IMG/VR virus record: IMGVR_UViG_2844443253_000007 | Direction: 5' to 3' (one strand) | Origin: a virus | Taxonomy: Duplodnaviria; Heunggongvirae; Uroviricota; Caudoviricetes | Length of the DNA stretch: 48,088 bases | Shown: piece after piece, positions 8,632 to 35,627 of the stretch | How the letters are laid out: every line of letters starts with the position of its first letter | Position numbering within the stretch: the stretch's first letter is position 1 | Position numbers and translations under genes: made by a program | Notes under the pieces: generated by a model | Database searches by the model: none | Seen by the model: only the letters and a program-made list of their open reading frames with translations | Told to the model about the DNA's origin: nothing

Positions 8632-8648
8632 TAGGTAATGACTCCAAC

Positions 8649-9152
8649 TTACTGATAGTGTTTTATGTTCAGATAATGCCCGATGACCTTGTCATGCAGC
8701 TCCACCGATTTTGAGAACGACAGTGACTTCCGTACCAGCCTTGCCAGATGTTGTCTCAGATTCAGATTATGTCGCTCAATGCGCTGAGTGTAACGCTTGC
8801 TGATAACGTGCAGCTTTCCCTTCAGGCGTGATTCATACAGCGGCCAGCCATCCGTCATCCATACCACGACCTCAAAGGCCGACAGCAGGCTCAGAAGACG
8901 CTCCAGTGTGGCCAGAGTGCGTTCACCGAAGACGTGCGCCACAACCGTCCTCCGTATCCTGTCATACGCGTAAAACAGCCAGCGCTGACGTGATTTAGCA
9001 CCGACGTAGCCCCAATGTTCGTCCATTTCAGCGCAGACAATCACATCACTGCCCGGTTGTATGCGCGAGGTTACCGACTGCGGCCTGAGTTTTTTAAGTG
9101 ACGTAAAACCGTGTTGAGGCCAACGCCCATAATGCGTGCACTGGCACGACAT
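8649..9152 (-). CDS. insB: IS1 InsB (expressed as InsAB' by frameshifting)
   Basis: 167-aa ORF overlapping insA. Confidence 0.9.
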
Positions 9153-9346
9153 CCGACGCCATTCATGGCCATATCAATGATTTTCTGGTGCGTACCGGGC
9201 TGAGAGGCGGTGTAAGTGAACTGTAGTTGCCATGTTTTACGGCAATGAGAGCAGAGATAGCGCTGATGTCCGGCAGTGCTTTTGCCGTTACGCACCACGC
9301 CTTCAGTAGCGGAGCAGGAAGGACATCTGATGGAAATGGAAGCCAC
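9071..9346 (-). CDS. insA: IS1 InsA
   Basis: 91-aa ORF repeated in all four IS1 copies. Confidence 0.9.
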
Positions 9347-9479
9347 GCAAGCACCTTAAAATCACCATCATACACTAAATCAGTAAGTTGGCAGCATTAC
9401 CCTGTTAGTATTGGCATTAATTCTGGTATACTACATAACGGGCTGAACACCCATTCTACTGCGCCAGCGGAGAACTACG

Positions 9480-10079
9480 ATGGCGCATATACAACTGGTC
9501 AAACAAACCTCTTCCGGATTACTTCTCCCGGCGACGCCGGAGAGTTGCGATTTTTTGCATCAAATCAAAATAGGTGAGTGGATACACGCAGACTTTAAGC
9601 GTGTGCGTAACTACGCATTCCACAAGCGTTTTTTCAAACTCCTGCAACTGGGATTTGATTACTGGACTCCGGTCGGTGGGGCGATCACGCCTCGCGAACG
9701 AAAACTGGTATCAGGCTTCGTTGATTACCTGTGCGAATCAGTAGGTCGGGAACACACTCCAGCCCTGAGTGATGCCGCAGAGCAATACCTTAATACAGTT
9801 GCGACATGCAGAACCCGGGATACGGCATTGCTAAAGTCGTTTGACGCTTTCCGCGAGTGGGTAACCATTCAGGCCGGATTTTACACCGAGCATATTTATC
9901 CTGATGGTAGTCGTGGGCGCAGGGCAAAATCTATCGCATTTGCGAACATGGACGAAACCGAGTTTCAGCAGGTTTATAAATCTGTACTGAATGTGCTGTG
10001 GAACTGGATCCTGTTCCGTAAATTTTCCTCTCCGGAGGAAGTCGAAAATGTGGCCGCGCAGTTACTGGAGTTTGCGTAA
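9480..10079 (+). CDS. Prophage protein, DUF1367-like
   Basis: 199-aa ORF in nin-like region upstream of Q; family assignment by recall. Confidence 0.5.
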   Translation: MAHIQLVKQTSSGLLLPATPESCDFLHQIKIGEWIHADFKRVRNYAFHKRFFKLLQLGFDYWTPVGGAITPRERKLVSGFVDYLCESVGREHTPALSDAAEQYLNTVATCRTRDTALLKSFDAFREWVTIQAGFYTEHIYPDGSRGRRAKSIAFANMDETEFQQVYKSVLNVLWNWILFRKFSSPEEVENVAAQLLEFA

Positions 10080-10920: not shown

Positions 10921-11307
10921 CTCAATCTGTTATCCGGGGCTATATTCCTCACGCGCCAGCAAAATCTGGCGTCGGGATTGGCGTCCCGGATGTTTACGGA
11001 GCGATATGAGACGCGCCCGCGTCTTTTTTCATATCGTTTGCACAGTCACATTCGCGATTTATGGCGGGCTGTGTGGGGGAGCCGAAAGGCTCGCCGGTTT
11101 CCGTACCCGGTTACGCCAACCCTGCACAGTTCGCCACCAGTTCGATTGGCGTCGTCGGTGGCGATAATTTCCAAATGTACGGAGTTATCGTTATGACCAC
11201 TCAAATCTCTGTTGAAACTCTCTCCCCGATCACCCATAACCAGTGAGGTAGCCTGAGTTTAACGGACACTCCTTCCTGAAATAGAATGGCATCAGAAGGA
11301 GCTAATA

Positions 11308-11610
11308 ATGAGCAGAAAAACCCAACGTTACTCTAAAGAGTTCAAAGCCGAAGCTGTCAGAACGGTTCTTGAAAATCAACTTTCGATCAGTGAAGGCGCT
11401 TCCCGATTATCCCTTCCTGAAGGCACTTTAGGACAATGGGTTACCGCCGCCAGAAAAGGGCTCGGTACTCCTGGTTCCCGCACGCTGGCTGAACTGGAAT
11501 CTGAAATTCTGCAACTGCGTAAGGCGTTAAATGAAGCTCGCCTTGAGCGAGATATATTAAAAAAAGCAACAGCGTATTTTGCACAGGAGTCGCTGAAAAA
11601 TACGCGTTAA
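11308..11610 (+). CDS. IS600 OrfA
   Basis: Identical to other copies. Confidence 0.9.
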   Translation: MSRKTQRYSKEFKAEAVRTVLENQLSISEGASRLSLPEGTLGQWVTAARKGLGTPGSRTLAELESEILQLRKALNEARLERDILKKATAYFAQESLKNTR

Positions 11611-11645
11611 TCGAACAATGGCGACAACAATTTCCCATTGAAGCG

Positions 11646-12464
11646 ATGTGTCAGGTATTTGGTGTATCCAGGAGCGGTTATTACAACTGGGTACAGCATG
11701 AACCCTCAGACAGAAAACAAAGTGATGAGCGGCTAAAACTGGAGATTAAGGTGGCACATATCCGCACTTGCGAAACATATGGAACCCGGCGGCTCCAGAC
11801 GGAGCTGGCAGAGAATGGCATCATCGTTGGTCGTGACCGACTGGCACGTCTTCGTAAGGAGCTGAGGCTACGCTGTAAGCAGAAACGCAAGTTCAGAGCG
11901 ACTACGAACCCGAACCACAATCTGCCAGTTGCGCCAAATCTGCTGAACCAGACGTTCGCTCCTACAGCACCAAATCAGGTCTGGGTGGCGGACCTGACGT
12001 ATGTTGCCACACAGGAGGGATGGTTGTACCTCGCTGGCATCAAAGATGTTTATACGTGTGAAATTGTCGGCTACGCCATGGGAGAGCGCATGACAAAAGA
12101 GCTGACAGGTAAAGCCCTGTTTATGGCGCTCAGGAGCCAGCGCCCACCTGCCGGGCTAATCCACCACTCTGATCGAGGTTCACAGTACTGCGCATACGAT
12201 TACCGGGTCATACAGGAGCAGTCTGGTCTGAAAACATCAATGTCGCGTAAAGGTAACTGTTACGACAACGCTCCGATGGAAAGCTTCTGGGGAACGCTGA
12301 AAAATGAGAGCCTGAGCCACTATCGTTTTAATAACCGGGATGAAGCCATCTCAGTAATACGGGAATACATTGAGATTTTCTACAATCGTCAGCGTCGTCA
12401 CTCTCGTCTGGGGAATATCTCCCCGGCAGCCTTCAGGGAAAAATATCATCAGATGGCTGCTTAA
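11646..12464 (+). CDS. IS600 OrfB transposase
   Basis: Near-identical to other copies (one R to C substitution). Confidence 0.9.
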   Translation: MCQVFGVSRSGYYNWVQHEPSDRKQSDERLKLEIKVAHIRTCETYGTRRLQTELAENGIIVGRDRLARLRKELRLRCKQKRKFRATTNPNHNLPVAPNLLNQTFAPTAPNQVWVADLTYVATQEGWLYLAGIKDVYTCEIVGYAMGERMTKELTGKALFMALRSQRPPAGLIHHSDRGSQYCAYDYRVIQEQSGLKTSMSRKGNCYDNAPMESFWGTLKNESLSHYRFNNRDEAISVIREYIEIFYNRQRRHSRLGNISPAAFREKYHQMAA

Positions 12465-13111
12465 AAAAAGAACAAATGGTAGTGTCCGCTATTGCCAGTA
12501 CACCTCACAGATTCCTGTTATTACCACCGAACTTTTGGCGCAGCTTTACGGCACTGAGCCGGTGCGTATTCGCCAGAATCATCATGAGAACAAAGTACGC
12601 TTCGTTGAAGGGAAACACTTTTTCAAAGTTGTTGGTAATGACCTTAAAGAATTGCGGGTCGCTTTAAACTACTCACAAAATCCAGTTTCACCCAAAGCCC
12701 GCTCCCTCATCCTCTGGACAGAACGAGGCGCAGCACGCCACGGCAAAATGCTCGAAACCGATCAGGCGTGGGATGTGTTCGAAAAACTGGAAGACTGCTA
12801 TTTCAGTCAAAGGGATCCGTCAACGCCAGTTTCATGCCAGAAAAGTTACGACACGCGAGTTCTCTGTTATCAGAGAGGCGGTGTCACTGTTTCCACAATT
12901 CAGTTACGGGATGATGATATTGTTATTTCCCTTGAGTCATGGCTGGAACTGGCGAGAGCCAATGGTTGGTTTGTTGTTCGCAGAGATAAACTGGTGGAAA
13001 GGTTGATGCAGCTTTAAAAAAGTTCTTGCATTTTTGCACATAAACTGCTTCAATTACGGTAAGCTTCGCAAAGCTGTATCGCGAGGCGAATAGCAGACAT
13101 GGACACTTGAA

Positions 13112-13225: not shown

Positions 13226-13302
13226 GGCCCTTTAGCTCAGTTGGTCAGAGCGAGCGACTCATAATCGCCAGGTCGCTGGTTCAAGTCCAGCAAGGGCCAC
13301 CA
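13226..13302 (+). tRNA. tRNA with anticodon CAT (Ile2/lysidine-type or Met)
   Basis: Cloverleaf with acceptor GGCCCTT/AAGGGCC, anticodon loop CTCATAA, TPsiC GGTTCAAGTCC, CCA end; resembles ileX/ileZ-type. Confidence 0.8.
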
Positions 13303-13303
13303 A

Positions 13304-13380
13304 CCACCACTAGCTCATCCGGATAGAGCATCAACCTTCTAAGTTGACGGTGCGAGGTTCGAGTCCTCGGTGGTGGGCCA
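13304..13380 (+). tRNA. tRNA-Arg (anticodon TCT); unusual acceptor stem beginning with C
   Basis: Anticodon loop CTTCTAA, TPsiC GGTTCGAGTCC, acceptor CCACCAC/GTGGTGG, CCA end. Confidence 0.7.
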
Positions 13381-13382
13381 GC

Positions 13383-13458
<76 letters not shown>

Positions 13459-13461
13459 TAT

Positions 13462-13536
<75 letters not shown>

Positions 13537-13650
13537 TGACCTTTCTTAAAGTACTCCAACCTACTGAATCCTAAGGGATACGGCTTTAAGCCTCCTTGCA
13601 GAGTTACTTACTGTAACCCACTGTGTAACCCTCTCAGGGCATGCAGACAT

Positions 13651-15255
13651 ATGATTCAGCTATCCAGTAGTCACAAACTTCCAGCAGTCTACTATCTCTA
13701 CCAGCGTAACGGCGTCTACTACTTCCGTCTTAGGGTCAGACAATCAAACAATGATAGAATGACCTCAATATCATTACGGACCAAGGATAGACGCACCGCT
13801 ATGGCTTACTCAAGGCACATAAAGGCAGCACTCAAGGCAATACACGCAGACAGACCCAACGCTACCTATGAGGAAATGAGGGAACACCTTAAGGACATCG
13901 CTGAGTGTGAACTGTCTATGGGCCGTTCAGATCTCTTTGAGCCTGACATGAGGGATATCTACCGGGACCAATACGGAGAACTTGGTGAGAGCCTTACCGA
14001 TGCTCTGGCTAGTGAGCCGCTAAGCATTGACCAGCATCGTTACATCAATGAGGCCCTGAAGGTGCTAAAAGCCTGTATGAGGCGTATCGAAGCGGGAGAC
14101 AGTCAGCCTCTGATAGATTACGTCGATCTTTTTAATGATATTGATAGGCAAGATAACCAAGCAGACTCTGTGTCCCTATCTGTTAATGCTCCAGAAGTAA
14201 AACCAGAAGTTACGCCTAGCATTACCATAGCGAGCCTCTTTGAACAATACGAAGCGGAGAACTATCAGAACTGGAAGCCTGCAACCTTAAGGGAAAACAA
14301 GGCGTCACACGCTGCGTTAATCGAAATATTCGACCATCTGGGTCTCAATGCAGACGCTAACAGGGCTGACATGCTTAGGGTCCGTGATGTGCTCCAGCAG
14401 TTACCTAGGAACCGTAAGCAGCGCTTCAAGGATGTCCCACTTGCTGACCTGTTGAGCCGTGAAGATAAGACAGATTGTCTGGATGTCGTTACCATCAACA
14501 ACAAGTATCTTATTAAGATGGCTGCTGTCTTTAGGTGGGCTGTGCGCAATGACTTGATTAAAAAGAACATGACTGAGGGTCTGGAGCTTAAAGTCCCTCA
14601 GCGTAAAGCCTCAGGGGCCCGTAACGCCTTCTCTACGGAGCAGGTGGGGCAACTACTGGTCGCAGCTAAGGCATACTCTCAGAAGACCTCTGGTAAGCCG
14701 TATCATTATTATGTTACCGCCTTGGCTGCTATCACTGGGGCGAGACTCAATGAAATAGCCCAACTACAGGTCAAAGACGTCAGGACCACTGAGGCGGGAA
14801 CCGTTTATATTCATATCAATGAAGACGATAGTAGTCTACCCGGTAAGAGCATCAAGAACGCTCATAGTGACCGCTGTGTGCCTCTGGTCGATGGGGCCTA
14901 TGGTTTTATATTGGCTGACTTTATGGCGCTTGTAGAGACCCGTAGAGGCGCTGACGGTGATGACGCTATGGTGTTCGATGGTCTGCGTCTCATGAAGAAC
15001 GGTTACGGTGAGCAGGTGAGTAAATGGTTTAATCGGACGTTGTTGCCTAAAGTCCTCGTAGACCGTAGCGGCTTAGCGTTTCACTCGTTTAGACATACAG
15101 TTGCGGCCCAGTTAAAACAACATGGGGTCGAGTTGGCGTATGCACAGGCGATCATGGGGCATAGTTCAGGGTCTATTACGTACGACCGTTATGCTAAAGA
15201 GGTCGAGGTTGATAGGCTGGTCAATGTGATGGCTGATGTTTATAAGGAGACCTAG
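13651..15255 (+). CDS. int: Tyrosine recombinase / integrase (534 aa) adjacent to tRNA cluster
   Basis: C-terminal catalytic signature (R in ITGARLNE, HSFRHT, final Y in ITYDRY); N-terminal arm-binding-like domain. Confidence 0.85.
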   Translation: MIQLSSSHKLPAVYYLYQRNGVYYFRLRVRQSNNDRMTSISLRTKDRRTAMAYSRHIKAALKAIHADRPNATYEEMREHLKDIAECELSMGRSDLFEPDMRDIYRDQYGELGESLTDALASEPLSIDQHRYINEALKVLKACMRRIEAGDSQPLIDYVDLFNDIDRQDNQADSVSLSVNAPEVKPEVTPSITIASLFEQYEAENYQNWKPATLRENKASHAALIEIFDHLGLNADANRADMLRVRDVLQQLPRNRKQRFKDVPLADLLSREDKTDCLDVVTINNKYLIKMAAVFRWAVRNDLIKKNMTEGLELKVPQRKASGARNAFSTEQVGQLLVAAKAYSQKTSGKPYHYYVTALAAITGARLNEIAQLQVKDVRTTEAGTVYIHINEDDSSLPGKSIKNAHSDRCVPLVDGAYGFILADFMALVETRRGADGDDAMVFDGLRLMKNGYGEQVSKWFNRTLLPKVLVDRSGLAFHSFRHTVAAQLKQHGVELAYAQAIMGHSSGSITYDRYAKEVEVDRLVNVMADVYKET

Positions 15256-15343
15256 AGGAGACCATAGTCTAGGATGACACTTACTACAGACCTGTGTGGT
15301 CATGTTTTTGACTCATAGTTTTCTCTACTTGTCAAGGGATAAT

Positions 15344-15366
15344 TAATACGACTCACTATAGGGAGA
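15344..15366 (+). promoter_or_regulatory. T7-type promoter, exact 23-bp consensus TAATACGACTCACTATAGGGAGA (predicted +1 G at 15361)
   Basis: Exact match to the T7 RNA polymerase class III promoter consensus. Confidence 0.9.
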
Positions 15367-15463
15367 AGGGACACAAAAAGTTTTCTCTTCTAGGATGACA
15401 CTTACTACAGACCTGTGCGGTCATGTTTTTGACTCATAGTTTTCTCTGCTTGTCAAGGGGTAA

Positions 15464-15486
15464 TTAATACGACTCACTATAGGGAG
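15464..15486 (+). promoter_or_regulatory. T7-type promoter, exact 23-bp consensus (copy 2)
   Basis: Exact match. Confidence 0.9.
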
Positions 15487-15583
15487 AAGGGACACAAAAA
15501 GTTTTCTCTTCTAGGATGACACTTACTACAGACCTGTGTGGTCATGTTTTTGACTCATGGTTTTCTCTACTTGTCAAGGATAA

Positions 15584-15606
15584 TTAATACGACTCACTAT
15601 AGGGAG
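15584..15606 (+). promoter_or_regulatory. T7-type promoter, exact 23-bp consensus (copy 3)
   Basis: Exact match. Confidence 0.9.
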
Positions 15607-15630
15607 AAGGGACACAAAAAGTTTTCTCTT

Positions 15631-16004
15631 CTAGGACAACTAACCGTAACTTATCGCATCCTTTCAGGGGCGGGATGACCAATTACAGACACCAAGCGTT
15701 CTACTTAAAGTGAATGCTTCCTGTGTGCTCTGGGTCAGTCGATAAGTGAATAGCAATAAGACACAATCATCTTAATTATGGTCTCTAGTCCCTACAGGGG
15801 CTTAACTTAAAGTTAACTTAAAGACACAATTAAAGATTAACTTATAGTATTACTTAAAGTTAACTTAAAGACACAATTAGAGATTAACTTTAAGTATTAA
15901 ATAAAAGATTTAATTAAAGACCAATTAAAGATTAACTCTAAGGGAATACCTTAAGGGGTGATGATATTTATAATAATCAATCACCAAACCTATAGGTCTT
16001 CTCT
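15631..16004 (+). repeat. AT-rich non-coding region with reiterated CTTAAAG / TTAAAGA motifs (T7-group left-end / origin-like)
   Basis: Units such as cttaaagttaacttaaagacacaattaaagattaactta repeated; no ORFs. Confidence 0.7.
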
Positions 16005-16076
16005 TGAAGTGGCACACTGAATTTGGCCACCTGAACAGAGGTGATATGCTCACCTCAGAACAACACAGGTGCTCCA

Positions 16077-17245
<1,169 letters not shown>

Positions 17246-17253
17246 CCACTTCA

Positions 17254-17480
17254 TCTAGGGTCTCTCTATAGGTCTTCTCTATGGTCTCTCTATAGGTCTC
17301 TCTAGGGTCTCCTCTAGGCATTACCCCCAGAAGCTAACTCTATGGCCCTCTATGGTCCTCTATGGCCCTGTACGTCATTCTTTAGGATGCCCTGTAGTTT
17401 CGTATAGCCTGATGCCTAGAGAGACCCTAGAGAGACCCTAGAGTGGCTCCTAGAGAGACCCTCCCAGTAGCTCCGCACAG
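17254..17480 (+). repeat. Short direct repeats TCTCTATAGG / CTATGGCCCT / CCTAGAGAGACC (T7-group genome-end-like)
   Basis: Reiterated 8-12-bp motifs, non-coding; continuous with 15631-16004 region once IS911 is removed. Confidence 0.65.
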
Positions 17481-17622
17481 CTACATCGTCATCATCATAG
17501 TATTCAATCTCAAAGTCATTCTGTTTGCATCCTGTTGTCCTGCTGGTCTCCCTTCGCTTGGGGACTTTGAGTAGGTCAGTGGGGGTGCGACTTCAGGGTG
17601 CAAACAAAAAGGAAATCAAGCG

Positions 17623-17778
17623 ATGTCTCAACAACCACAACAACCACAACAAGAAATCAGCATCATTAACCTCGACCAGCTTGTGTCCATGACCTCAGTT
17701 GAAATTGCTGAGCTGACAGGCAAGGAGCACCGAAATGTCCTTCGTGATATTCGTAAGATGCTCGAAGAACTTAACGCG
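17623..17778 (+). pseudogene. Rha-family phage regulatory protein, N-terminal fragment truncated by IS1
   Basis: TSVEIAELTGKEHRNVLRDIRKML matches Rha/antirepressor N-terminal motif; ORF runs into IS1. Confidence 0.7.
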
Positions 17779-17833
17779 GGTAATGCTGCCAACTTACTGA
17801 TTTAGTGTATGATGGTGATTTTAAGGTGCTTGC

Positions 17834-18109
17834 GTGGCTTCCATTTCCATCAGATGTCCTTCCTGCTCCGCTACTGAAGGCGTGGTGCGTAACGGCAAAA
17901 GCACTGCCGGACATCAGCGCTATCTCTGCTCTCATTGCCGTAAAACATGGCAACTACAGTTCACTTACACCGCCTCTCAGCCCGGTAAGCACCAGAAAAT
18001 CATTGATATGGCCATGAATGGCGTCGGATGTCGCGCCAGTGCACGCATTATGGGCGTTGGCCTCAACACGGTTTTACGTCACTTAAAAAACTCAGGCCGC
18101 AGTCGGTAA
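17834..18109 (+). CDS. insA: IS1 InsA
   Basis: Repeated ORF. Confidence 0.9.
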
Positions 18110-18531
18110 CCTCGCGCATACAACCGGGCAGTGATGTGATTGTCTGCGCTGAAATGGACGAACATTGGGGCTACGTCGGTGCTAAATCACGTCAGCGCTG
18201 GCTGTTTTACGCGTATGACAGGATACGGAGGACGGTTGTGGCGCACGTCTTCGGTGAACGCACTCTGGCCACACTGGAGCGTCTTCTGAGCCTGCTGTCG
18301 GCCTTTGAGGTCGTGGTATGGATGACGGATGGCTGGCCGCTGTATGAATCACGCCTGAAGGGAAAGCTGCACGTTATCAGCAAGCGTTACACTCAGCGCA
18401 TTGAGCGACATAATCTGAATCTGAGACAACATCTGGCAAGGCTGGTACGGAAGTCACTGTCGTTCTCAAAATCGGTGGAGCTGCATGACAAGGTCATCGG
18501 GCATTATCTGAACATAAAACACTATCAGTAA
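18028..18531 (+). CDS. insB: IS1 InsB
   Basis: Repeated ORF. Confidence 0.9.
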
Positions 18532-18546
18532 GTTGGAGTCATTACC

Positions 18547-19497
18547 AAAAAAAGCAACAGCGTATTTTGCACAGGAGTCGCTGAAAAATACGCGTTAATC
18601 GAACAATGGCGACAACAATTTCCCATTGAAGCGATGTGTCAGGTATTTGGTGTATCCAGGAGCGGTTATTACAACTGGGTACAGCATGAACCCTCAGACA
18701 GAAAACAAAGTGATGAGCGGCTAAAACCGGAGATTAAGGTGGCACATATCCGCACTCGCGAAACATATGGAACCCGGCGGCTCCAGACGGAGCTGGCAGA
18801 GAATGGCATCATCGTTGGTCGTGACCGACTGGCACGTCTTCGTAAGGAGCTGAGGCTACGCTGTAAGCAGAAACGCAAGTTCAGAGCGACTACGAACCCG
18901 AACCACAATCTGCCAGTTGCGCCAAATCTGCTGAACCAGACGTTCGCTCCTACAGCACCAAATCAGGTCTGGGTGGCGGACCTGACGTATGTTGCCACAC
19001 AGGAGGGATGGTTGTACCTCGCTGGCATCAAAGATGTTTATACGTGTGAAATTGTCGGCTACGCCATGGGAGAGCGCATGACAAAAGAGCTGACAGGTAA
19101 AGCCCTGTTTATGGCGCTCAGGAGCCAGCGCCCACCTGCCGGGCTAATCCACCACTCTGATCGAGGTTCACAGTACTGCGCATACGATTACCGGGTCATA
19201 CAGGAGCAGTCTGGTCTGAAAACATCAATGTCGCGTAAAGGTAACTGTTACGACAACGCTCCGATGGAAAGCTTCTGGGGAACGCTGAAAAATGAGAGCC
19301 TGAGCCACTATCGTTTTAATAACCGGGATGAAGCCATCTCAGTAATACGGGAATACATTGAGATTTTCTACAATCGTCAGCGTCGTCACTCTCGTCTGGG
19401 GAATATCTCCCCGGCAGCCTTCAGGGAAAAATATCATCAGATGACTGCTTAAAAAAAGAACAAATGGTAGTGTCCGCTATTGCCAGTACACCTCAGT
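18547..19497 (+). mobile_element. IS600, 3' partial copy (~951 bp; first ~325 bp including most of orfA missing)
   Basis: Begins at A-run inside orfA 3' end; ends with IS600 right terminus ...CACCTCA. Confidence 0.9.
18634..19452 (+). CDS. IS600 OrfB transposase (no orfA upstream)
   Basis: Near-identical to other copies. Confidence 0.85.
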   Translation: MCQVFGVSRSGYYNWVQHEPSDRKQSDERLKPEIKVAHIRTRETYGTRRLQTELAENGIIVGRDRLARLRKELRLRCKQKRKFRATTNPNHNLPVAPNLLNQTFAPTAPNQVWVADLTYVATQEGWLYLAGIKDVYTCEIVGYAMGERMTKELTGKALFMALRSQRPPAGLIHHSDRGSQYCAYDYRVIQEQSGLKTSMSRKGNCYDNAPMESFWGTLKNESLSHYRFNNRDEAISVIREYIEIFYNRQRRHSRLGNISPAAFREKYHQMTA

Positions 19498-19498
19498 A

Positions 19499-19848
19499 AT
19501 CCATCCAGGCCTGTTGTTGCAGAGCTTGGCGATGATTCAGGCTGGCATTTTTTCAGCCAGAGAAACCCGGATAACAGCATAGTGTTCACTGTTAACGGAC
19601 AGGTAATTCCGTTAAATTACGGAAACTTCGATGCCCGCTATAAATATCGAACAGAGGGGGTACAGGATGTACGGTATGGCCATGAAATGTATTACAGCCC
19701 CGGCAGTAACACCGTTTCGTGGAGATTTTGCGCACCTTCGGGACACGGGCTGTCAGGGATGGCGATATCGGATACCGGCCGTAACTCAGCGGATAACGTT
19801 GACGGTGTGTATTACCGACCACTGCAAAAACTGATTAATGGCACCTAG
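19499..19848 (+). pseudogene. Phage tail fiber protein, C-terminal fragment (5' part removed at IS600 junction)
   Basis: ORF track protein begins inside IS600 end; C-terminal fiber-like sequence followed by tail fiber assembly gene. Confidence 0.55.
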
Positions 19849-19871
19849 TATAACGTAGCGAGTATTTAACA

Positions 19872-20416
19872 ATGTTGCATTTAAAAAATATTACTACGGG
19901 TAATCCGAAAACAGCAGAACAATATCAGATGACAAAACGATATTCGGTCACCTGGCTTTTTTCAGAAGACGGAAAAAACTGGTATGAAGAGCTGAAGAAT
20001 TTCGCCAGGACACAATTAAAATAACTTACACCGGAGACGGTCGCGTGGTGTGGGTCGGTAAGGATGTGACAGGCATTGAACCCCGTAACGCCAGTGTTAT
20101 TGAAGTTCCTGATATTACCGCCAACCGCCGCATTACCGCGCCGGGTTACTGGTTTTACCGCAATGATGAATTTGTCTTTGACTACAGACTCAAAGCGGAA
20201 GATGAGCGTGATGCCCTTCTGGCTCAGGTCAGTGCCCGGACAGGGGAATGGGAAGAAGACCTGCTGCTGGGGTTAATCAGCGACGAAGATAAAGAAAAGC
20301 TGAAAGCCTGTCGTATTTACGCGAAATCGCTGCAGGCGATGGATTTCAGCACCATCACTGATAAATCCTCATACAACGCCATTGAATGGCCCGCCTCTCC
20401 GGAAGGTTCTTCCTGA
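19872..20416 (+). pseudogene. Tail fiber assembly protein, frameshifted near 20000
   Basis: N-part [19 protein letters not shown]... stops at 20024; C-part continues in another frame and ends with IEWPASPE typical of Tfa. Confidence 0.65.
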
Positions 20417-20439
20417 TTTAATTTATCGCGAGAAAAACA

Positions 20440-21354
20440 ATGTCTGTAGTGATATCAGGTGCGCTGACTGATGGCGCAGGTATCCCCATGTCCGGATACC
20501 ATATTATTCTGAAATCCCGGGTAAACCCCCCGGAAGTGGTGATGAACACTGTTGCTGATGTGATGACAGGAAACGATGGTGAATACTGTTTCCATGCGCG
20601 GACTGGAAAATATGGTGTGTATCTGAAACAGGACTGGCGCAACGAGTACAACGTTGGCGACATTGCTGTATATGAGGACTCAAAGCCCGGCACGCTGAAT
20701 GACTTTCTGATTGCTCCTGATGAGGGCGACCTGAAACCGGATGTCGTCAAACGCTTTGAGGAAATGGTGGCGCAGGCGCAGCAGAGCGCCGGGGCCGCAG
20801 CCGGAAACGCACAGCAGACGGCGCAGGATGTGGCGGCAGCCGCAGGTTATGCCCGCGCAGCAGAGCAGGCCAAAAATGACATTGATGCTGCGCTGACCGG
20901 CACTCTGAAAACGGCTAACCATCTGTCTGAAATCGCAGCAGCAGGCGAAAAGGCACAACAGAAGTCCCGGGATAATCTGGGGCTGAAAAGTGCGGCCACG
21001 ATGGAAGCACAGAGCGACATTTACGACCGGACAAAAGGCCGTCTGGCGATACCCGGCGCATTCGGCTTTGGGTGTGCTTTTCTGCCTGAAGATGTTATCC
21101 GTTTTGACACTAAGAGTGATTTCCTGGCCTGGGTAAGGAATGCGCTGCCAGGTGAATATTCCGTTGCTGGCCCCTACGGCATCATCATACCCGACACACG
21201 GTTTGAAGGGGTGCTCAGCATCCGGTGGACTGATGCACGCCCTGAGACAACAGAACCGCGGTACAGAGCCAAATCCCTTACTTTTTACGGCATTAACGGC
21301 CCCATTTATCACACCCGCTACCGCTACTGGCCCATATCCAGACTGACTGGGTGA
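20440..21354 (+). CDS. Phage tail fiber protein (N-terminal conserved type)
   Basis: 304 aa, Ala/Gln-rich central region typical of side tail fibers. Confidence 0.6.
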   Translation: MSVVISGALTDGAGIPMSGYHIILKSRVNPPEVVMNTVADVMTGNDGEYCFHARTGKYGVYLKQDWRNEYNVGDIAVYEDSKPGTLNDFLIAPDEGDLKPDVVKRFEEMVAQAQQSAGAAAGNAQQTAQDVAAAAGYARAAEQAKNDIDAALTGTLKTANHLSEIAAAGEKAQQKSRDNLGLKSAATMEAQSDIYDRTKGRLAIPGAFGFGCAFLPEDVIRFDTKSDFLAWVRNALPGEYSVAGPYGIIIPDTRFEGVLSIRWTDARPETTEPRYRAKSLTFYGINGPIYHTRYRYWPISRLTG

Positions 21355-21704
21355 AAATAAATATAACCACAGAAGATATTATTTACAGAATCGTGGCGAG
21401 CTCTGTCCGCAACAGATGGGGAGACCCTGACATTGGCGGGCTGATTATTGCTGCGTACCAGGGAGAAGCTGACGGTGATAAAGTCATCAGACTTGTCAGG
21501 GGGCAGTCATACAGAGGCTCACGACTGGGACCGGTGGGGATTTCAGTGCCCAGTACTCCCACCGGAACGTATATAGCATCCCCACAATTTTTCATTACGG
21601 GATGTTCAGAGCATTCATTACCGGGGTCATATTGCGCCCTGTCCGGGGTGCCGGATGCTCATGTCTCTGGCGCAATGCCCGGGCTTTTTATTCGCACATC
21701 GTGA
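21351..21704 (+). CDS. Tail-fiber-associated hypothetical ORF (possibly remnant of fiber C-terminus)
   Basis: GTG start overlapping upstream stop; region from 21538 is duplicated at 41736. Confidence 0.4.
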   Translation: MKINITTEDIIYRIVASSVRNRWGDPDIGGLIIAAYQGEADGDKVIRLVRGQSYRGSRLGPVGISVPSTPTGTYIASPQFFITGCSEHSLPGSYCALSGVPDAHVSGAMPGLFIRTS

Positions 21705-21713
21705 GGAATGCAC

Positions 21714-22278
21714 CGTGGAAATTAAAAAAATCATTAATCCCCGTTATACCGAAAGTGGCGCAGTAGACTGTGACGTTTTTTTTGACGACAGGGACCAGGC
21801 AGTCCCCTACACAGCCACCGCTGATGATGTCGCTCCGACGGGTCAGCAAATCTGGCAGGAACTGCAAAGCGGCAAATGGGGTGAGATAGCCCCATTCACT
21901 GTGACACCAGAAATGCTGGAAGCGGCCAGAGAGGCCAGACGTCAGGAAATTGAAGCATGGCGCGCAGAACAGGAGGCGAAGCTGTTCACGTTTGAATGGA
22001 ACGGTCGTATCTGGAATGCTGGTCCCGACTCACTGGGCCGCCTGTCCCCGGTAGTCATGCTGGCAAAATCTGTCACAGCACAAACACATATGGCGTGGAG
22101 CGATGCCGATAATCAGCAGGTGAAACTGTCGATGCCGGAACTGGAAGAACTGGCGGCAGCAATGGTGCAGGCGCAGGTCGATCGCAACGATGAGATTTAT
22201 CGCCGTCAGCGGGAGCTGAAGGAAGAGCTGAATAGTCTGAAGGATTTGAATTCGGTTAGGAATTTTATCGTGGAATAA
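21714..22278 (+). CDS. Tail fiber assembly protein (Tfa-like)
   Basis: [25 protein letters not shown]... typical Tfa N-terminus; GTG start; second diverged copy at 41911-42475. Confidence 0.7.
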
Positions 22279-22478: not shown

Positions 22479-23336
22479 CTAATTGGGTGATAACAGATCC
22501 TGTGTATGGGCGTTTCCCTTTGTGCGTGCGTTGATGCTGGTAACGGTAAACGTCATGATGAACACGACCGCGAATAAGACGACAATCGTCGGAGCTGGTG
22601 CGCTGTCGATAAAAAAGGACAGCCAGACACCAGTCATTGACACTATTACCGATATGCCAGTCGCCAGTAGGAGCGCAATATGAAAGCGTTGTGTCAGGAG
22701 TACTGCAATGGCGCCAGGCGCAATGAGCAGAGAAATAGAGAGAATGATACCTACTGCTTTCAGCGTCGCCACAATGGTCAGGGAAACCATGCACAGCAGC
22801 CCATAATGCAGCCATCTCGTATGCAAACCGCTTACCTGCGCCTGTTGATAATCAAAGCTGAACAGCAAAAAATCCCGCCATTTTACGCTAATAACAAGTG
22901 TAACCAGCCCGGCAATAATCACCGTCTGGATTATGTCGCCGATGGTTATCCCGAGCATGTCGCCGAAAAGAATATGGTCAAGATGTACGTCTGGTTTAAT
23001 TGCAATATACAAGATCAGACCTGCGGCAAACATGCCAGAAAAAACAATCCCCATAACTGTATCTTGCTTGATTCGGCTGTTGTCTTTCAGGTATCCCGTC
23101 GCCACCGCGCAGAATACTCCGGCGACGAATGCCCCTGTAGCCAGAGGTAACCCCAGAATCCAGGTAAGCACGATGCCAGGAAAAACCGCATGACTCATCG
23201 CGTCACCCATCAGTGCCCAACCTTTCAGGACCAGAAAGACCGACAGCAGCGCACAGGGTATGGAAACTACCAGTGAAATCAGCAGTGCGTGACTCATAAA
23301 GGTGAACTGCAGTGGCTCCAGTAATAATGCCATCAT
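22479..23336 (-). CDS. sitD: Mn/Fe ABC transporter permease SitD
   Basis: 285-aa polytopic membrane protein, last gene of four-gene operon. Confidence 0.85.
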   Translation of the reverse strand: MMALLLEPLQFTFMSHALLISLVVSIPCALLSVFLVLKGWALMGDAMSHAVFPGIVLTWILGLPLATGAFVAGVFCAVATGYLKDNSRIKQDTVMGIVFSGMFAAGLILYIAIKPDVHLDHILFGDMLGITIGDIIQTVIIAGLVTLVISVKWRDFLLFSFDYQQAQVSGLHTRWLHYGLLCMVSLTIVATLKAVGIILSISLLIAPGAIAVLLTQRFHIALLLATGISVIVSMTGVWLSFFIDSAPAPTIVVLFAVVFIMTFTVTSINARTKGNAHTQDLLSPN

Positions 23337-24190
23337 GAGCGATCCTCCAGCGCTTTATGCGCACGCCGACGATTTGCCAAAAGTCCATGGGTGGGCGCAA
23401 ATACAAATGCTAAAAGAAACAGCAGTGTCTGCGCCACCACGATGATTCCACCTGTCGCGCCGTCCAGAAAGTAACTGACCCACGCGCCGAGGAAACTGGT
23501 TACACTGCCAATAGTTACAGCAATTATGAGCAGGCGGGGAAAACGATCGGTTAACAACCATGCTGTTGCACCGGGAGTCACCACCAGACAGATCACCAGA
23601 AAGGCACCAACCGTTTGCAGCGCCGCAACGGTCGAAACCGACAGCAGGGTGAAGAAGAGGATTTTTAATCTGCCCGGATGTAATCCAATAGCACGGGCGT
23701 GATTCTCGTCGAAAAAGGTCACCATAAGATCTTTCCATTTGAAAAAAAGCACGATGATCGAGAGAATGCCAATGATAGTGAGTTGCAGGATATCCGCCGG
23801 ATCGATTGCCAGAATATTGCCCAGGACGATGGTCTGAATGTTCACGGATGTCGGGTTCAATGACACCATAAACAGCCCCAGGCCAAAAAAGGACGAGAAG
23901 ATCAGGCCGATGATGGCATCTTCTTTTAAGCGGGTGCGTTGGTTAAGAAACAGCATGCTGCCCGCTGCCAGTCCGCCGGAAAAGAAGGCTCCCAGAGAAA
24001 ACGGAAGCCCCAGCATATATGCCCCCGCAACACCCGGGACAATAGAGTGCGACAGCGCATCGCCAATCAGCGACCAGCCTTTTAGCATCAGATAGCATGA
24101 CAGGAAAGCGCAGAGACCGCCGACCATTGCCGAGACCCACATCGCATTGAGCATATATTCATAGCTGAAGGGTTCCAGTAGCACGTTCAT
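23333..24190 (-). CDS. sitC: Mn/Fe ABC transporter permease SitC
   Basis: 285-aa membrane protein, overlapping start/stop with neighbours. Confidence 0.85.
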
Positions 24191-25014
24191 CTTGCTTCCC
24201 TCTGCACCGCTGACGGTCGATGTGCCACAAAAGGGCGTTCATCGTCAGTAATAATGCTTTCTTCCGAGCCGTTAAGTGTGACATGGCGCAGTACGCCGCT
24301 AAAAGCCAGCTCCAGGTTCTCGGCTGTAAAAGTGGTGTCTGTCGGCCCGCTTGCCAGGACGGTGCCTTTGACCATGACCGTATAATCGCAAAATGTCGTG
24401 ACTGAGCCGAGATTGTGCGTTGAGACAAGCATCGTTTTGCCTTCCGCGCGTAACTCCCTCAACAGGCTGATGATTTTCGCTTCGGTTTTCACATCAACGC
24501 CGGTAAAAGGTTCATCCAGCAGGATCACATCACCCTGCTGTGCAATTGCTCTCGCCAGAAAGACGCGTTTCTTTTGTCCACCGGAAAGCTCGCCGATTTG
24601 ACGATGGCGAAAATCCACCATATCGACACGTTCCAGCGCATCGGTGACAATCTGACGATCCCTCTTTTTGGCTATACGCAACATACCCATATGCCCATAG
24701 CGGCCCATCATCACCACATCTTCCACCAGTACAGGAAATGACCAGTCAACCTCTTCTGACTGAGGGACGTAGGCAACCAGGTTTTTCTGTAGCGCCTGTC
24801 GCGTGGGAATACCCAGAACAGATATCTTTCCGCTGGTCAGACGCACAAATCCCATAATCGCTTTAAACAACGTCGATTTTCCGGAACCGTTTACCCCAAC
24901 CAGAGCGGCAATAGATCCACTTGGTACTGTGAAGGATGCATCGCGCAGTGCTGTGTGCCCGTTACGCCAGGTGACAGTAACATCATTAACGACAATGCCT
25001 GCAGATTGCATCAT
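24187..25014 (-). CDS. sitB: Mn/Fe ABC transporter ATP-binding protein SitB
   Basis: Walker [13 protein letters not shown] signature LSGGQKKR, Walker B ILLDEP. Confidence 0.9.
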
Positions 25015-25928
25015 TATTTCTCCCTTTTCCCGGCTTTAATTCCCTGTACCAGCGTACTGGTAGTAACCTTAAGAAGGTCGATATACGTAGGTACCGGGCC
25101 GTTTTCTGTGCTCAGGGAATCGACATAGAGCACACCGCCGTAGTGTGCGCCGGTTTCACGCGCAACCTGACGCGCTGGTTTATCGGAAATCGTACTCTCG
25201 CTAAAGACTGCCGGGATATGATTTTTCTTAACTATATCAACAACCTTACGTACCTGCTGCGGTGTTCCTTGTTGATCGGCATTAATCGGCCACAGATAAA
25301 GCTCTTTTAGCCCCAAATCGCGTGCGAGATAAGAAAAAGCCCCTTCACTGGTGACCATCCATCGCTGATTCTCAGGGAGTTCCGTAATCTGCTTACGCAG
25401 GGGGGCAAGGGTTTGGGTAATCTTGGCTTTATAAGTATCGGCATTACGTTGGTAGGTTTGTGCATTTGCCGGATCGTATTTTATCAACGCATCACGAATA
25501 TTATCGACGTAAATCAGAGCATTATCTGGCGACATCCATGCATGGGGATTAGGTTTGCCCTCATAGGGTCCTTCGGTGATCCCTACTGGCGTCACACCCG
25601 AAGAGACAATTACTTCTGGAACCCCATTGAGATGCTGGTAAAAGCGTTGGAACCACAATTCCAGATTCATACCATTGGCGAGAATCAGTTGTGCCCCCTG
25701 CGCACGTTTAATATCGCCAGGGGTAGGCTGATACTCATGAATTTCTGCACCAGGCTTGGTTATGGATGAGACTTCTGCAGCATCTCCAGCCACGTTTTTG
25801 GCCATATCCGCGATGATGGTAAATGTTGTAATGACCTTGAATTTTTCAGTTGCACTTGCCTGAAATGCGATCGAGCAGGTGAGGGCGAGGCACCCCAAGA
25901 GCATGGTTACTTTTTTTATTGAGTGCAT
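25014..25928 (-). CDS. sitA: Periplasmic Mn/Fe-binding protein SitA
   Basis: Signal peptide plus metal-binding SBP fold; operon order sitABCD. Confidence 0.9.
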
Positions 25929-26023: not shown

Positions 26024-27054
26024 AGCTTTGAGGCCTAAAACAGGGATTAGGTTGTTTCCTGCTGGCGACATGATATTGAGGAAAAAAGTAGAGCAGCTAT
26101 TAGGCTTTGAAATGACTTTATGAGGAAAATTGTTGATGGCAAAAATGGGGCAAAAAAGAGTGGGTTATCGTAGCTTATTGTTGTCGCTGATAATGTTTAA
26201 CATATTGAAAAATAAATAAAATACTTATGAGTCAGATAGTTGTGATTTTTGCCCTTACTTGTTCAGGTTGTATTGTTCTTTCTTTGTAATTTGTTGATTT
26301 TCTTGCATTATTTCAGTTCTCTGGTACTAAATGGGGCAAATTGGGGGCAAACTTTGCAACTACGATAACCGCGCATTCAACATGGCTATCTGTTCGTCGT
26401 TCATGTCATCAATCCACATACCGTAAATTTCATACACCATTTGCGCAGTTTCATGCCCCATCTGGCTGGCTATAAATGCCGGGTTCGCTCCTGCCGTCAA
26501 CAGCCAGCAGGCAAAAGTATGTCGCGTATGGTACGGATTACGGCGGCGAATACCAGCACGTTTTACTGCTGCATTCCATCTTGTACCCAAACTGCTTACC
26601 GAGTAATAAGGTTTCTGTTTTTCGTTACACACCCTGGGCATGAAAACAAAATGCAGTTTTTGTTTTTCAGTTCTGCCGTACTCCCGATGATAAAAAGTGA
26701 TTTCGCTTTTGCGATGATGCCCGGTCAGTTTGTATTGCTCCTTCAGTGCTTCAAGAGCCGGCTGCAGTAATGCTACCGTCCGGATCCCGGCATTTGTTTT
26801 TGGGGGACCGAACATATCAAGTATCGTCAGGTTTCTTCTGACATTCACAATTCCCTTCTCGAAATCCACATCCTCCCACGCCAGAGCTGCCAGTTCCCCG
26901 TGACGAAGCCCGGAGTAAACGGCAAATTTCCACAAGTTTTGGCTCTGTCCTTTTTCACTTTCCATTAATGCATTGAATTCTGTTTTAGATAACGGGTCAG
27001 GTAATGCTGCCAACTTACTGATTTAGTGTATGATGGTGATTTTAAGGTGCTTGC

Positions 27055-27330
27055 GTGGCTTCCATTTCCATCAGATGTCCTTCCTGCTCCGCTACTGAAG
27101 GCGTGGTGCGTAACGGCAAAAGCACTGCCGGACATCAGCGCTATCTCTGCTCTCATTGCCGTAAAACATGGCAACTACAGTTCACTTACACCGCCTCTCA
27201 GCCCGGTACGCACCAGAAAATCATTGATATGGCCATGAATGGCGTCGGATGTCGTGCCAGTGCACGCATTATGGGCGTTGGCCTCAACACGGTTTTACGT
27301 CACTTAAAAAACTCAGGCCGCAGTCGGTAA
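27055..27330 (+). CDS. insA: IS1 InsA
   Basis: Repeated ORF. Confidence 0.9.
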
Positions 27331-27752
27331 CCTCGCGCATACAACCGGGCAGTGATGTGATTGTCTGCGCTGAAATGGACGAACATTGGGGCTACGTCGG
27401 TGCTAAATCACGTCAGCGCTGGCTGTTTTACGCGTATGACAGGATACGGAGGACGGTTGTGGCGCACGTCTTCGGTGAACGCACTCTGGCCACACTGGAG
27501 CGTCTTCTGAGCCTGCTGTCGGCCTTTGAGGTCGTGGTATGGATGACGGATGGCTGGCCGCTGTATGAATCACGCCTGAAGGGAAAGCTGCACGTTATCA
27601 GCAAGCGTTACACTCAGCGCATTGAGCGACATAATCTGAATCTGAGACAACATCTGGCAAGGCTGGTACGGAAGTCACTGTCGTTCTCAAAATCGGTGGA
27701 GCTGCATGACAAGGTCATCGGGCATTATCTGAACATAAAACACTATCAGTAA
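27249..27752 (+). CDS. insB: IS1 InsB
   Basis: Repeated ORF. Confidence 0.9.
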
Positions 27753-28155
27753 GTTGGAGTCATTACCCACCGGAACTGATTTGATGAACTATCAACGCTC
27801 TTAAATTCCCGGCCTTTTTAATGTTACTGTTAGTAATCTCCCAGCCTTTCAATGTTTCCCGACATCGTTTTCCTCGAAACATGAACCAGATGCGAATGTA
27901 TTTACCTCGAATCTCGACACCTGTTGGTAATTTAGACATATCATGAGTCTTTGATAAACTGATTTATCTTCGGATAGTTGTACCAGATAATCCCTCGCTT
28001 ACTGTCTGGCTTCCCTAAAGGAGATACTCGTTTGAAGTGGAAGCCTTCCACCCAACAGTTCTGGCGGTATGCTTCAATTTGTCTGGCACCCAGACCAGTG
28101 CGAAGCATCAGGCTGAACCGCCCCGGGTTTCCTGGAGAGTGTTTTATCTGTGAAC

Positions 28156-29365: not shown

Positions 29366-29649
29366 CCTGTTTACCTCTTTCTCAGGAAGTTTAGTCTCCA
29401 GGATTCCCGGGGCGGTTCATTCCCAAAATGCACTTGGTTTTACACCGGAATATTCTCATCGTATCCTGCTTGTTGCGTTTCGTTTTGTGTTTGTGGATCC
29501 GGGAATGCATATTCAACGCCTTCCAGTTCAATCCATAGTGCATTACGACCAGCTTTGATTGTCGGCCAGTCCATACCTGAAGTGGCACACTGAATTTGGC
29601 CACCTGAACAGAGGTGATATGCTCACCTCAGAACAACACAGGTGCTCCA

Positions 29650-33088
<3,439 letters not shown>

Positions 33089-33093
33089 CCACT

Positions 33094-34059
33094 TCAACCT
33101 TTGATTCTTTCCCATGAGCGGGAGGTGAATGTTTTTTCCAGCAAATCAGCTTTTGCGCGTTTGGCGTCGTTACTGGTGCCCCCATGGTGCTTGTTGAGCA
33201 ACTCGATAATTTCATCAAGTGCGATTTCTTTTGCACGCTTTTCTTTTAGCCATGTCGGTGTACCGTCGTTGGCAAATAATTCACTGTTATCCCGTGAGGT
33301 ATCGATGCCGGGGTGTTCACCTCCCAGGTTAAGAGACTCGATATGAGGAAGAAAGTTTTTAAATGTTGGGTTTGAAAATACCTGTCCATCAATACGGGTG
33401 GAGCGATCTTTTAGTATTCTGGCGGTGCGCCACACCTGACCGGTTTCTATGTTCATTTGCTTCTCCATCTGGATCCGGATGGAGGGTTCATAACCGGTTT
33501 CTGTTTCTGCTTTCATTTTTATACCGGTTTTTGCCAACTGGCGTTTGCCATCATCACCTTCGAAAAAGTCATACTCATATCCTGCACGCCCGCACATAAT
33601 AATGTGCGCCTGACTGTTAACAAATCGATCGGTAAAGCGTCGCCACTCCTGTTTGAGCCACGCCCAGTCTGAAAATTCCAGTCCTCGTTTACGGTTTCGG
33701 CGTCTGGCATACTCGTCGCATAATCCGGTCCAGAAGTGACTGATGGAGTCGATGATCATTACGGAACCGCTGCTTTCCGCTTCATTAATGGCTTCAAGCA
33801 GATCAACAAACGAGCGGGTTTTTGCCGTAAATAATTCGATATTTTCCGCATCAAAGCGGGGTTTAACCCAGTCAGAGCCTGTTTCTGTGTCCAGAAACAT
33901 TACCGGGCGGTTACCACCTTCAATTCCCCGTTGCCGCATAAGCATTACCAGACCAATAGCCAGTTCGCTTGCTGTGTAGGTTTTGCCGTCGCCAGCAAAC
34001 CCCATAATTCCTGCTTTTAGATAGGCCTGTGTGTTTATTGCTCGTTGAAAAAGCGCCAT
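33094..34059 (-). CDS. P-loop NTPase (phage-associated ATPase, possibly AAA_24/Sak4-like); stop codon lies in IS911 terminus
   Basis: Walker A GFAGDGKT, Walker B-like MIIDSISH; native C-terminus possibly lost. Confidence 0.5.
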   Translation of the reverse strand: MALFQRAINTQAYLKAGIMGFAGDGKTYTASELAIGLVMLMRQRGIEGGNRPVMFLDTETGSDWVKPRFDAENIELFTAKTRSFVDLLEAINEAESSGSVMIIDSISHFWTGLCDEYARRRNRKRGLEFSDWAWLKQEWRRFTDRFVNSQAHIIMCGRAGYEYDFFEGDDGKRQLAKTGIKMKAETETGYEPSIRIQMEKQMNIETGQVWRTARILKDRSTRIDGQVFSNPTFKNFLPHIESLNLGGEHPGIDTSRDNSELFANDGTPTWLKEKRAKEIALDEIIELLNKHHGGTSNDAKRAKADLLEKTFTSRSWERIKG

Positions 34060-34358: not shown

Positions 34359-34423
34359 CTGAGGTAGCCTGAGTTTAACGGACACTCCTTCCTGAAATAG
34401 AATGGCATCAGAAGGAGCTAATA

Positions 34424-34726: not shown

Positions 34727-34761
34727 TCGAACAATGGCGACAACAATTTCCCATTGAAGCG

Positions 34762-35580: not shown

Positions 35581-35627
35581 AAAAAGAACAAATGGTAGTG
35601 TCCGCTATTGCCAGTACACCTCACAGG

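Follow-up and report, generated by a model that had tools for sequence, protein, structure and literature searches.

How a complete copy of the insertion sequence (IS) IS1 came to be joined directly to an IS600 without its left part, with a truncated rha gene on one side and the end of a tail-fibre gene on the other, is the question raised by positions 17779-19497 of a 48,088-nucleotide stretch of viral DNA (Caudoviricetes; IMG/VR record IMGVR_UViG_2844443253_000007). The whole of this stretch is here called the window, and coordinates refer to it unless another sequence is named. The arrangement is very probably an IS1-associated deletion scar inside one defective prophage with lambdoid early genes. 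As a phenomenon this is textbook IS1 behaviour in an IS-saturated Shigella genome. The left flank of the scar matters more than the scar itself: it holds a member of a family of islands with T7 promoters, which merits a study of its own.

The junctions of IS1 and IS600

The IS1 copy under study (17779-18546, + strand) is complete. It is 768 bp long, of the Shigella type, ends in GGTAATG...CATTACC, is ~91% identical to IS1A and contains the insA and insB' open reading frames (ORFs; 17834-18109 and 18028-18531). Its identity to the three other copies in the window (8634-9401 on the - strand, 27000-27767 and 44857-45624) is 99.6-99.7%, and the domains PF03811, PF12759 and PF03400 (InsA zinc ribbon/HTH, DDE_Tnp_IS1) were detected on the same IS1 in sister genomes. 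A preliminary description of the locus, made from its letters alone, had stated that this copy has no target duplication, and this is borne out by its flanks, CTTAACGCG on the left and AAAAAAAGC on the right, which differ; 9-bp duplications, TACTAACAG and GGTTGAATG, border two of the other copies. The lack of the expected 8-9-bp duplication favours a rearrangement, while the identity of the element as IS1 is not in doubt.

On the left, IS1 adjoins the first 52 codons of a gene of the Rha family (rha', 17623-17778, + strand; PF09669), whose reading frame runs on into IS1 as a fusion ORF and ends at 17805. Relatives of this gene encode 234-243 amino acids, and the copy in the window is cut by IS1 after codon 52, as expected of the truncated Rha-like gene that had been described here. 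At the DNA level rha' is 84-85% identical to the rha genes found in islands at glyU in Escherichia coli O26 and others, and a search with the 52-residue N-terminus returned short fragments only (of at most 91 residues, mostly from Shigella flexneri and E. coli), with no intact close relative among them. The gene had also been assigned to the Q region of the prophage; this assignment has to be abandoned, since rha is part of a distinct integrase island, which sits at the 3' end of a prophage-borne tRNA-Gly and is treated below.

On the right, IS1 adjoins 949 bp of IS600 (18547-19495, + strand), corresponding to nucleotides 316-1264 of the 1264-bp element and 99.4-99.7% identical to the four full copies in the window. 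The missing nucleotides 1-315 comprise the left inverted repeat, the promoter and most of orfA; what is kept begins at nucleotide 316 with the initial A of the A7G motif, the orfA/orfB frameshift site. The piece is therefore an immobile fragment and not a complete member of the IS3 family. That the right end of IS1 lies against IS600 had been correctly recognised; the internal position, given as ~326, becomes 316 by comparison with the full copies, and the end of IS600 lies at 19495 and not at 19497. Directly after it, also as previously described, comes the C-terminus of a side tail-fibre gene (stf, 19496-19848, + strand, ~117 codons): from 19496 onwards the sequence is 97% identical to positions 20001-20374 of the corresponding stretch of the enteroinvasive E. 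coli (EIEC) strain RMDEC465, that is, to the last 374 nucleotides of a 2442-nucleotide gene annotated as 'prophage tail fiber'. Near its end stf has TAG where this relative has TGG.

The same contact between IS1 and nucleotide 316 of IS600 occurs elsewhere. Queries spanning it were run on 5,426 complete E. coli genomes, with counts that are lower bounds, and it was found in at least one of these, which among the matches listed is E. coli O121 201805972 (CP119441, 1934191-1936163). In this genome an IS1A lies inside a complete IS600 at the same nucleotide, reading ...TTAAAAAAAG before GGTGATG on the left and AAAAAAAGCAAC after CATTACC on the right, with an 8-bp duplication, AAAAAAAG, of IS600 nucleotides 316-323. 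The IS1A is of the other subtype, ~91% identical to the IS1 in the window, and the gene that hosts the nested IS600 is a DnaC-like replication gene of a different prophage. The O121 case is evidently a second, independent insertion of IS1 at this nucleotide of IS600 rather than a conserved nested element. The two loci share the insertion point (A7G, nucleotides 316-323) and the right junction; they differ in that the O121 IS600 is complete, with its duplication and without any deletion, whereas in the window the left part of IS600 is gone. The O121 insertion thus shows how the right junction in the window arose, since this junction is exactly what an IS1 insertion at nucleotides 316-323 leaves.

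Were IS1-in-IS600 a conserved nested or composite mobile unit, the junction would say nothing of a local deletion, and the finding of the same junction as a nested structure elsewhere had in fact been put forward as the observation that would speak against one. The identical O121 junction is such a case; the deletion stands all the same, because a different IS1 subtype, a different gene and an independent insertion are involved there. A conserved unit is very improbable, given that, among the matches listed, its junction is met in at least one of the 5,426 genomes, that the O121 IS600 is complete and duplicated at its insertion point in another host gene, and that the IS600 of the window, having no left end, cannot transpose.

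The distribution of the junctions was followed with exact 60-mers across rha/IS1, IS1/IS600 and IS600/stf in 23 S. flexneri genome stretches, some of which share an assembly. All three were present in 21 of the 23, the sources of the junction-bearing stretches being named as S. flexneri, 5a M90T included. One of the other two stretches (L025) is without the exact IS1/IS600 60-mer, and the other, CP044155, is without rha/IS1 owing to a further deletion; every one of the 23 thus has either these junctions or a derivative. Moreover, the index of a sequence collection lists the junction ORF in 268 blocks, and exact-protein look-ups of this ORF and of the island integrase returned nothing beyond the same S. 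flexneri locus type. A region so dense in near-identical IS copies might invite the suspicion that repeats were mis-joined during assembly; this is scarcely credible in view of exact 60-bp junctions in ~20 independently assembled complete S. flexneri chromosomes and of an ORF so widely indexed. Judging from these genomes, the scar is fixed in the S. flexneri lineage and serves as a stable lineage marker.

Two strains throw light on the relative age of the events. In CP044155 the left junction of IS1 has moved ~1.95 kb leftwards and reads ...TTAACTTAAAG before GGTAATG (12140-12200 of its stretch, equivalent to ~15823 in the window), with IS1/IS600 and IS600/stf unchanged and with rha', the iterons and an IS911-like element gone. 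A left junction that moved while IS1/IS600 stayed fixed indicates that the same IS1 deleted leftwards at least once more. In S. flexneri CP049606 the rha/IS1 junction is present and the IS911 site is empty (9700-9760 of its stretch), which implies that the IS911-like element came after the IS1 junction.

A probable deletion between the arms of one prophage

The prophage is represented by two arms. The left arm carries hok, DUF1367, ybcO, a DUF1133/Q-like gene and a cluster of four tRNA genes; the right arm carries the stf C-terminus, tfa, a second tail-fibre gene (stfN) and DUF4376, the last three at 19872-22278 on the + strand. The alignment to related prophages that had been proposed as a means of measuring what is missing was made with the EIEC strain RMDEC465, with E. 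coli O121 201805972 and with phage phiP27, and the arms proved to be collinear in all three. RMDEC465 and O121 201805972 each have a single prophage in which the two arms follow one another as in the window and point the same way. In RMDEC465 a distance of 16,832 bp separates the tRNA cluster (98.5% identical) from the stf breakpoint, with holin, lysozyme, Rz and tail genes in between; in O121 201805972 the arms match at 94-97% and lie 9.8 kb apart; and in phiP27, a functional phage with the same order of modules, ~22 kb extend from the tRNA genes to the end of the first tail-fibre gene. The earlier proposal that the lysis, head and most of the tail genes were removed by an IS-mediated deletion is thus supported, with 9.8-16.8 kb between the arms in the relatives and ~22 kb in phiP27.

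Collinearity on a shared strand favours a deletion over an inversion. An inversion or translocation between IS1 copies, joining two prophages or distant parts of the chromosome with nothing deleted, is worth considering since there are two or more related prophage remnants in the window (the second with a further DUF4376-ipaH module and with RecE and Rha/Ash genes on the - strand) and since rearrangements are common here, as one other IS1 (27000-27767) and two IS600 copies without duplications attest. Such an event is nevertheless unlikely: it would have flipped one arm, whereas both keep the order and strand of RMDEC465, O121 and phiP27, and the two IS1 copies of the window that are without duplications do not have reciprocal flanks.

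A deletion within one prophage may have come about in the following way. A prophage with the order Q, tRNA cluster, lysis, head, tail, stf, tfa, stf2 and DUF4376 would have gained an integrase/rha island of ~6 kb at the 3' end of its own tRNA-Gly(UCC); IS600 would then have landed ~2.07 kb into the 2.44-kb tail-fibre gene; and IS1 would have entered the A7G frameshift motif of that IS600 (nucleotides 316-323). In a fourth step everything to the left of this IS1, up to codon 52 of the island rha, would have been lost, either by intramolecular transposition of IS1 (adjacent deletion) or by recombination with a second IS1 in rha. The loss would comprise nucleotides 1-315 of IS600, ~2.07 kb of stf and the morphogenesis and lysis genes (~17-22 kb by comparison), as well as the distal ~4 kb of the island, including attR. 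IS911 would have entered the island iterons later. We infer the order of the first three steps and the choice of IS1 mechanism, the two mechanisms being indistinguishable here because both leave the same product.

Several points weigh against this account. No intermediate was found, neither a copy of this prophage with a complete rha nor an stf interrupted by IS600 but free of IS1, so that a deletion in a single step and the order of events are what we infer from the end product. Furthermore, this prophage family is mosaic and a second prophage lies in the window, which makes recombination between two prophages possible, and both comparator prophages are themselves eroded by IS elements, that of O121 201805972 by IS911 and IS600.

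Adjacent deletions by IS1 and deletions by recombination between two IS1 copies belong to the classical genetics of E. coli. The locus resembles them in keeping a complete IS1, in having one fixed and one new junction, in the absence of a duplication and in the one-sidedness of the loss, and the repeated one-sided deletion in CP044155 is typical of them as well. The mechanism is the same; what differs is that the anchor junction lies inside IS600, at the frameshift A-tract. The locus is also like other cases of IS-driven prophage decay in Shigella and EIEC, where IS1, IS600, IS911 and IS2 are abundant and where morphogenesis genes are lost and cargo is kept (ipaH in the relatives), with the difference that the deletion here also cut into a second mobile element, which was nested in the prophage. 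It represents one more step in the erosion of Shigella prophages by IS elements, in which morphogenesis genes were lost and cargo such as sitABCD was kept, and a small example in which IS1 struck the frameshift A-tract of IS600 on two independent occasions.

The integrase/rha island at tRNA-Gly

The tRNA cluster of the prophage (13226-13536, + strand) encodes tRNAs Met/Ile-CAU, Arg-UCU, Thr-UGU and Gly-UCC, as detected with ARAGORN and Rfam. Identity to the EIEC prophage of RMDEC465 stops exactly after tRNA-Gly, at ...GCCCGCTCCA, and the left end of the island comes next: the bases that follow, TGACCTTTCTTAAAGTACTCCAAC..., are the left end of islands located at the chromosomal glyU tRNA-Gly(CCC) in E. 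coli. The 3' end of the tRNA-Gly gene is, on this comparison, the attachment point of the island. In the window (13462-13560) the island used the prophage tRNA-Gly(UCC) and not the chromosomal glyU tRNA-Gly(CCC), the two tRNAs sharing only their last ~10 nucleotides (GCCCGCTCCA) plus GGTTCGATTCCC. One mobile element is thus, as the alignments indicate, nested in another through a phage tRNA.

The island remnant in the window extends over 13462-17778. Its tyrosine integrase (13651-15255, + strand; 534 amino acids, PF00589) begins 115 bp past tRNA-Gly(UCC) and is 65-87% identical to integrases adjoining tRNA-Gly(CCC) in 20 Enterobacterales genomes. The family to which it belongs (relatives L014, L015 and L026-L046) occurs at tRNA-Gly(CCC) in no fewer than 20 species of Enterobacterales. 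Ten relatives, from several genera, are flanked by repeats of 17-31 bp that copy the tRNA-Gly 3' end, and they measure 5.5-9.1 kb, or 5.5-6.5 kb where no IS has inserted. The order of genes in the family is int, an optional DUF4145 gene, a non-coding kilobase, a Rha/Ant-like gene, an ORF of 62-76 amino acids, DUF6971 and a protein of 373-402 amino acids. Upstream of rha in the window lie iteron-like repeats (17254-17470, + strand), made up of GGTCTCTCTATAG and its inverse CCTAGAGAGAC, and the E. coli island L015 (strain 21AR0133) has a longer array of the GGTCTCTCTATAG unit in the corresponding position. An IS911-like element of the IS3 family (16005-17253, + strand; 99% identical to annotated IS911) sits in the iteron array with a 3-bp duplication, TCT. 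The island of the window is dead, with IS911 in its iterons, rha cut, and attR and the capsid-like gene, described below, gone. A ~6.6-kb Logan contig containing a whole island was considered as a possible circular form and dismissed, its flanks being chromosomal.

The non-coding part of the island contains three tandem 121-bp repeats (15268-15636, + strand), each with a perfect T7 class III promoter, TAATACGACTCACTATAGGGAGA, directed towards rha (15344-15366, 15465-15487 and 15585-15607, + strand). The number of perfect T7 promoters expected by chance is 0, and those of the island are identical over 23-27 bp to the T7 promoters phi6.5, phi9, phi10, phi13, phi17 and OR. S. flexneri strains have one to three copies of the 121-bp promoter repeat, and the E. 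coli island L015 has two T7 promoters. In 21 loci of the family, 38 copies of the core CACTATAGG fall within the 1.6 kb that follow int, every one of them reading away from int; 16 of the loci have at least one, and the remaining ~789 kb contain a single copy. In their upstream part, which determines specificity, the promoters differ from host to host. The island of Klebsiella pneumoniae ATCC 13883 (L026) has AATTAGGGCACACTATAGGGAGA, which is 100% identical to an annotated promoter of phage K11, in addition to one T7 promoter, and 66 of the 67 phage records matching this promoter region are Klebsiella phages, K11 and KP32 included. No description of T7 promoters in such islands was found in the open-access literature, non-open-access papers not being covered.

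Some 200 bp downstream of the promoters, AT-rich repeats of the TTAACTTAAAG type were detected with TRF (15802-15937, + strand). When compared with the entire T7 genome, they align best, locally, to the phi1.1A/B and phiOL regions, with a score of 37 against 17.8 +/- 3.1 for shuffled sequences, a modest margin. These two regions are replication origins of T7, phi1.1A/B being the primary one. A palindrome, GGTGATGATATTTATAATAATCAATCACC, follows the AT-rich repeats at ~15958-15986 and recurs, slightly altered, in the Klebsiella island L026. Promoters, AT-rich repeats and palindrome together may constitute an origin of the T7 type. As regards the T7 packaging signals, no consistent ATCTGTT (CJ) site was found in the islands, and the T7 terminal repeat showed no similarity to them beyond promoters. 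An Rfam scan of the non-coding DNA of the island detected tRNAs only. In several members of the family (for instance L014, 11280-11790; L034, 12320-12830) a stretch of ~500 bp without annotated genes lies between two sets of phage-type promoters. Judged by eye, the E. coli O26 and Citrobacter versions of it are alike; Rfam gave no match to it, and it could encode an RNA transcribed by the phage polymerase.

Scans of the island ORFs against Pfam, PHROGs and PADLOC recognised only Rha/Ant, DUF4145 and DUF6971. In many members of the family the DUF4145 gene comes directly after int and is PD-T7-4 (PADLOC, E 8e-99); the window island and the E. coli island L015 are without it. PD-T7-4 has been renamed RAZR and is described in PMC13017515 as an abortive-infection RNase activated by the portal proteins of T7 and T3. 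Vassallo et al. state that PD-T7-4 'often overlaps an integrase gene' (PMC9519451). Term searches found no genomic T7 promoters in either of these papers, and neither 'integrase' nor 'satellite' in PMC13017515.

The protein of 373-402 amino acids encoded by the last gene of the island has a predicted structure with the HK97 capsid fold (pLDDT 69.5, pTM 0.67), and its top matches in BFVD are almost all named as capsid or head proteins, with E values down to 1e-9. It was identified by fold comparison alone, a sequence search of the PDB and the Pfam, PHROGs and PADLOC scans being negative for it. Matches in IMG/VR (32-47% identity) were dismissed as evidence of encapsidation, as they lie at the ends of genome-derived viral contigs.

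Of the known kinds of element, phage satellites come closest to the island. The islands resemble them in consisting of an integrase and att repeats around a small element, with attR deleted in the window. The features by which PICI and cf-PICI are defined (alpA/stl-type regulation, a primase-replicase, terS or a full capsid/packaging module) are not those of the island: two relatives were scanned over the five ORFs that follow int, and neither showed a recognisable primase/rep, terminase or alpA/stl-type gene. Compared with P4, PICI/cf-PICI, PLE and PICMI, the island, at 5.5-6.5 kb, is much smaller than PICIs usually are, and its apparent switch is an array of T7-group promoters followed by an AT-rich region resembling a T7 origin.

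Taken together, the gene content and the promoters suggest that the islands are probably satellites or defence islands of T7-group phages. On a dependence on a helper for induction, replication and packaging, the host-matched T7-group promoters, the AT-rich region and the gene with the HK97 fold bear only indirectly. The fuller proposal, to which we would give even chances, is that these islands of ~6 kb, located at tRNA-Gly in many Enterobacterales, make up a family so far undescribed and represent a novel sort of satellite, or of defence island. They would be switched on directly by the RNA polymerase of infecting T7-like phages, the polymerase of the helper acting as both inducer and replication primer: arrays of promoters suited to the host (T7-type in E. 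coli and Shigella, K11/KP32-type in Klebsiella) would lead into the AT-rich region, with an operon of the Rha/Ant-like regulator, DUF6971 and the capsid-like protein behind it. The copy in the window would have integrated in a prophage-borne tRNA-Gly before IS1 destroyed it. Perfect T7 promoters in natural chromosomal islands, kept as a family feature, matched to the host and linked to RAZR and to a protein with a capsid fold, hint at an unrecognised class of elements that sense or exploit T7-like phages. If this is true, the reach of satellite and defence biology would grow to include the virulent coliphage that has been studied best, and there would be an explanation of where in genomes PD-T7-4/RAZR is at home.

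Neighbouring features of the window

The tail-fibre module to the right of the scar has decayed in the strain of the window (19834-21704). Its tfa is split into parts of 50 and 123 amino acids, the gene product having 181 amino acids in the sister stretch L008, and the second tail-fibre gene is split into 304 and 117 amino acids, compared with 422 in sister strains. Directly after the module lies sitDCBA, encoding an ABC metal transporter (22479-25928, - strand), at a place occupied by ipaH in the EIEC relatives. A second DUF4376-ipaH module, 97-99% identical to EIEC relatives, is located 20 kb further on (41734-43602, within 41734-44370), in another prophage remnant that also holds RecE, AAA_24 and Rha/Ash genes.

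The IS1 copy at 27000-27767 is, like the one studied, without a duplication, its flanks being AACGGGTCA and CACCGGAAC; it cuts a phage integrase fragment (26360-27013, - strand) that adjoins sitA and marks another rearrangement scar. A composite transposon formed by the IS1 copies at 17779 and 27000 with the sit genes between them was considered and dismissed, as the sequences bordering it on the outside, CTTAACGCG and CACCGGAAC, do not form a duplication.

Four complete copies of IS600, each of 1264 bp, are found at 11244-12507, 34360-35623, 46336-47599 and, on the - strand, 437-1700. A 3-bp duplication is present at the copies starting at 11244 (CAG) and 46336 (GTT), and those at 34360-35623 (CTC/CAG) and 437-1700 (AAG/GGA) are without one. 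Finally, a further copy of IS911 is split into halves (29578-30339 and 32610-33099) around an insert of ~2.3 kb, which encodes a group II intron reverse transcriptase/maturase (30996-32519; RVT_1 and GIIM).

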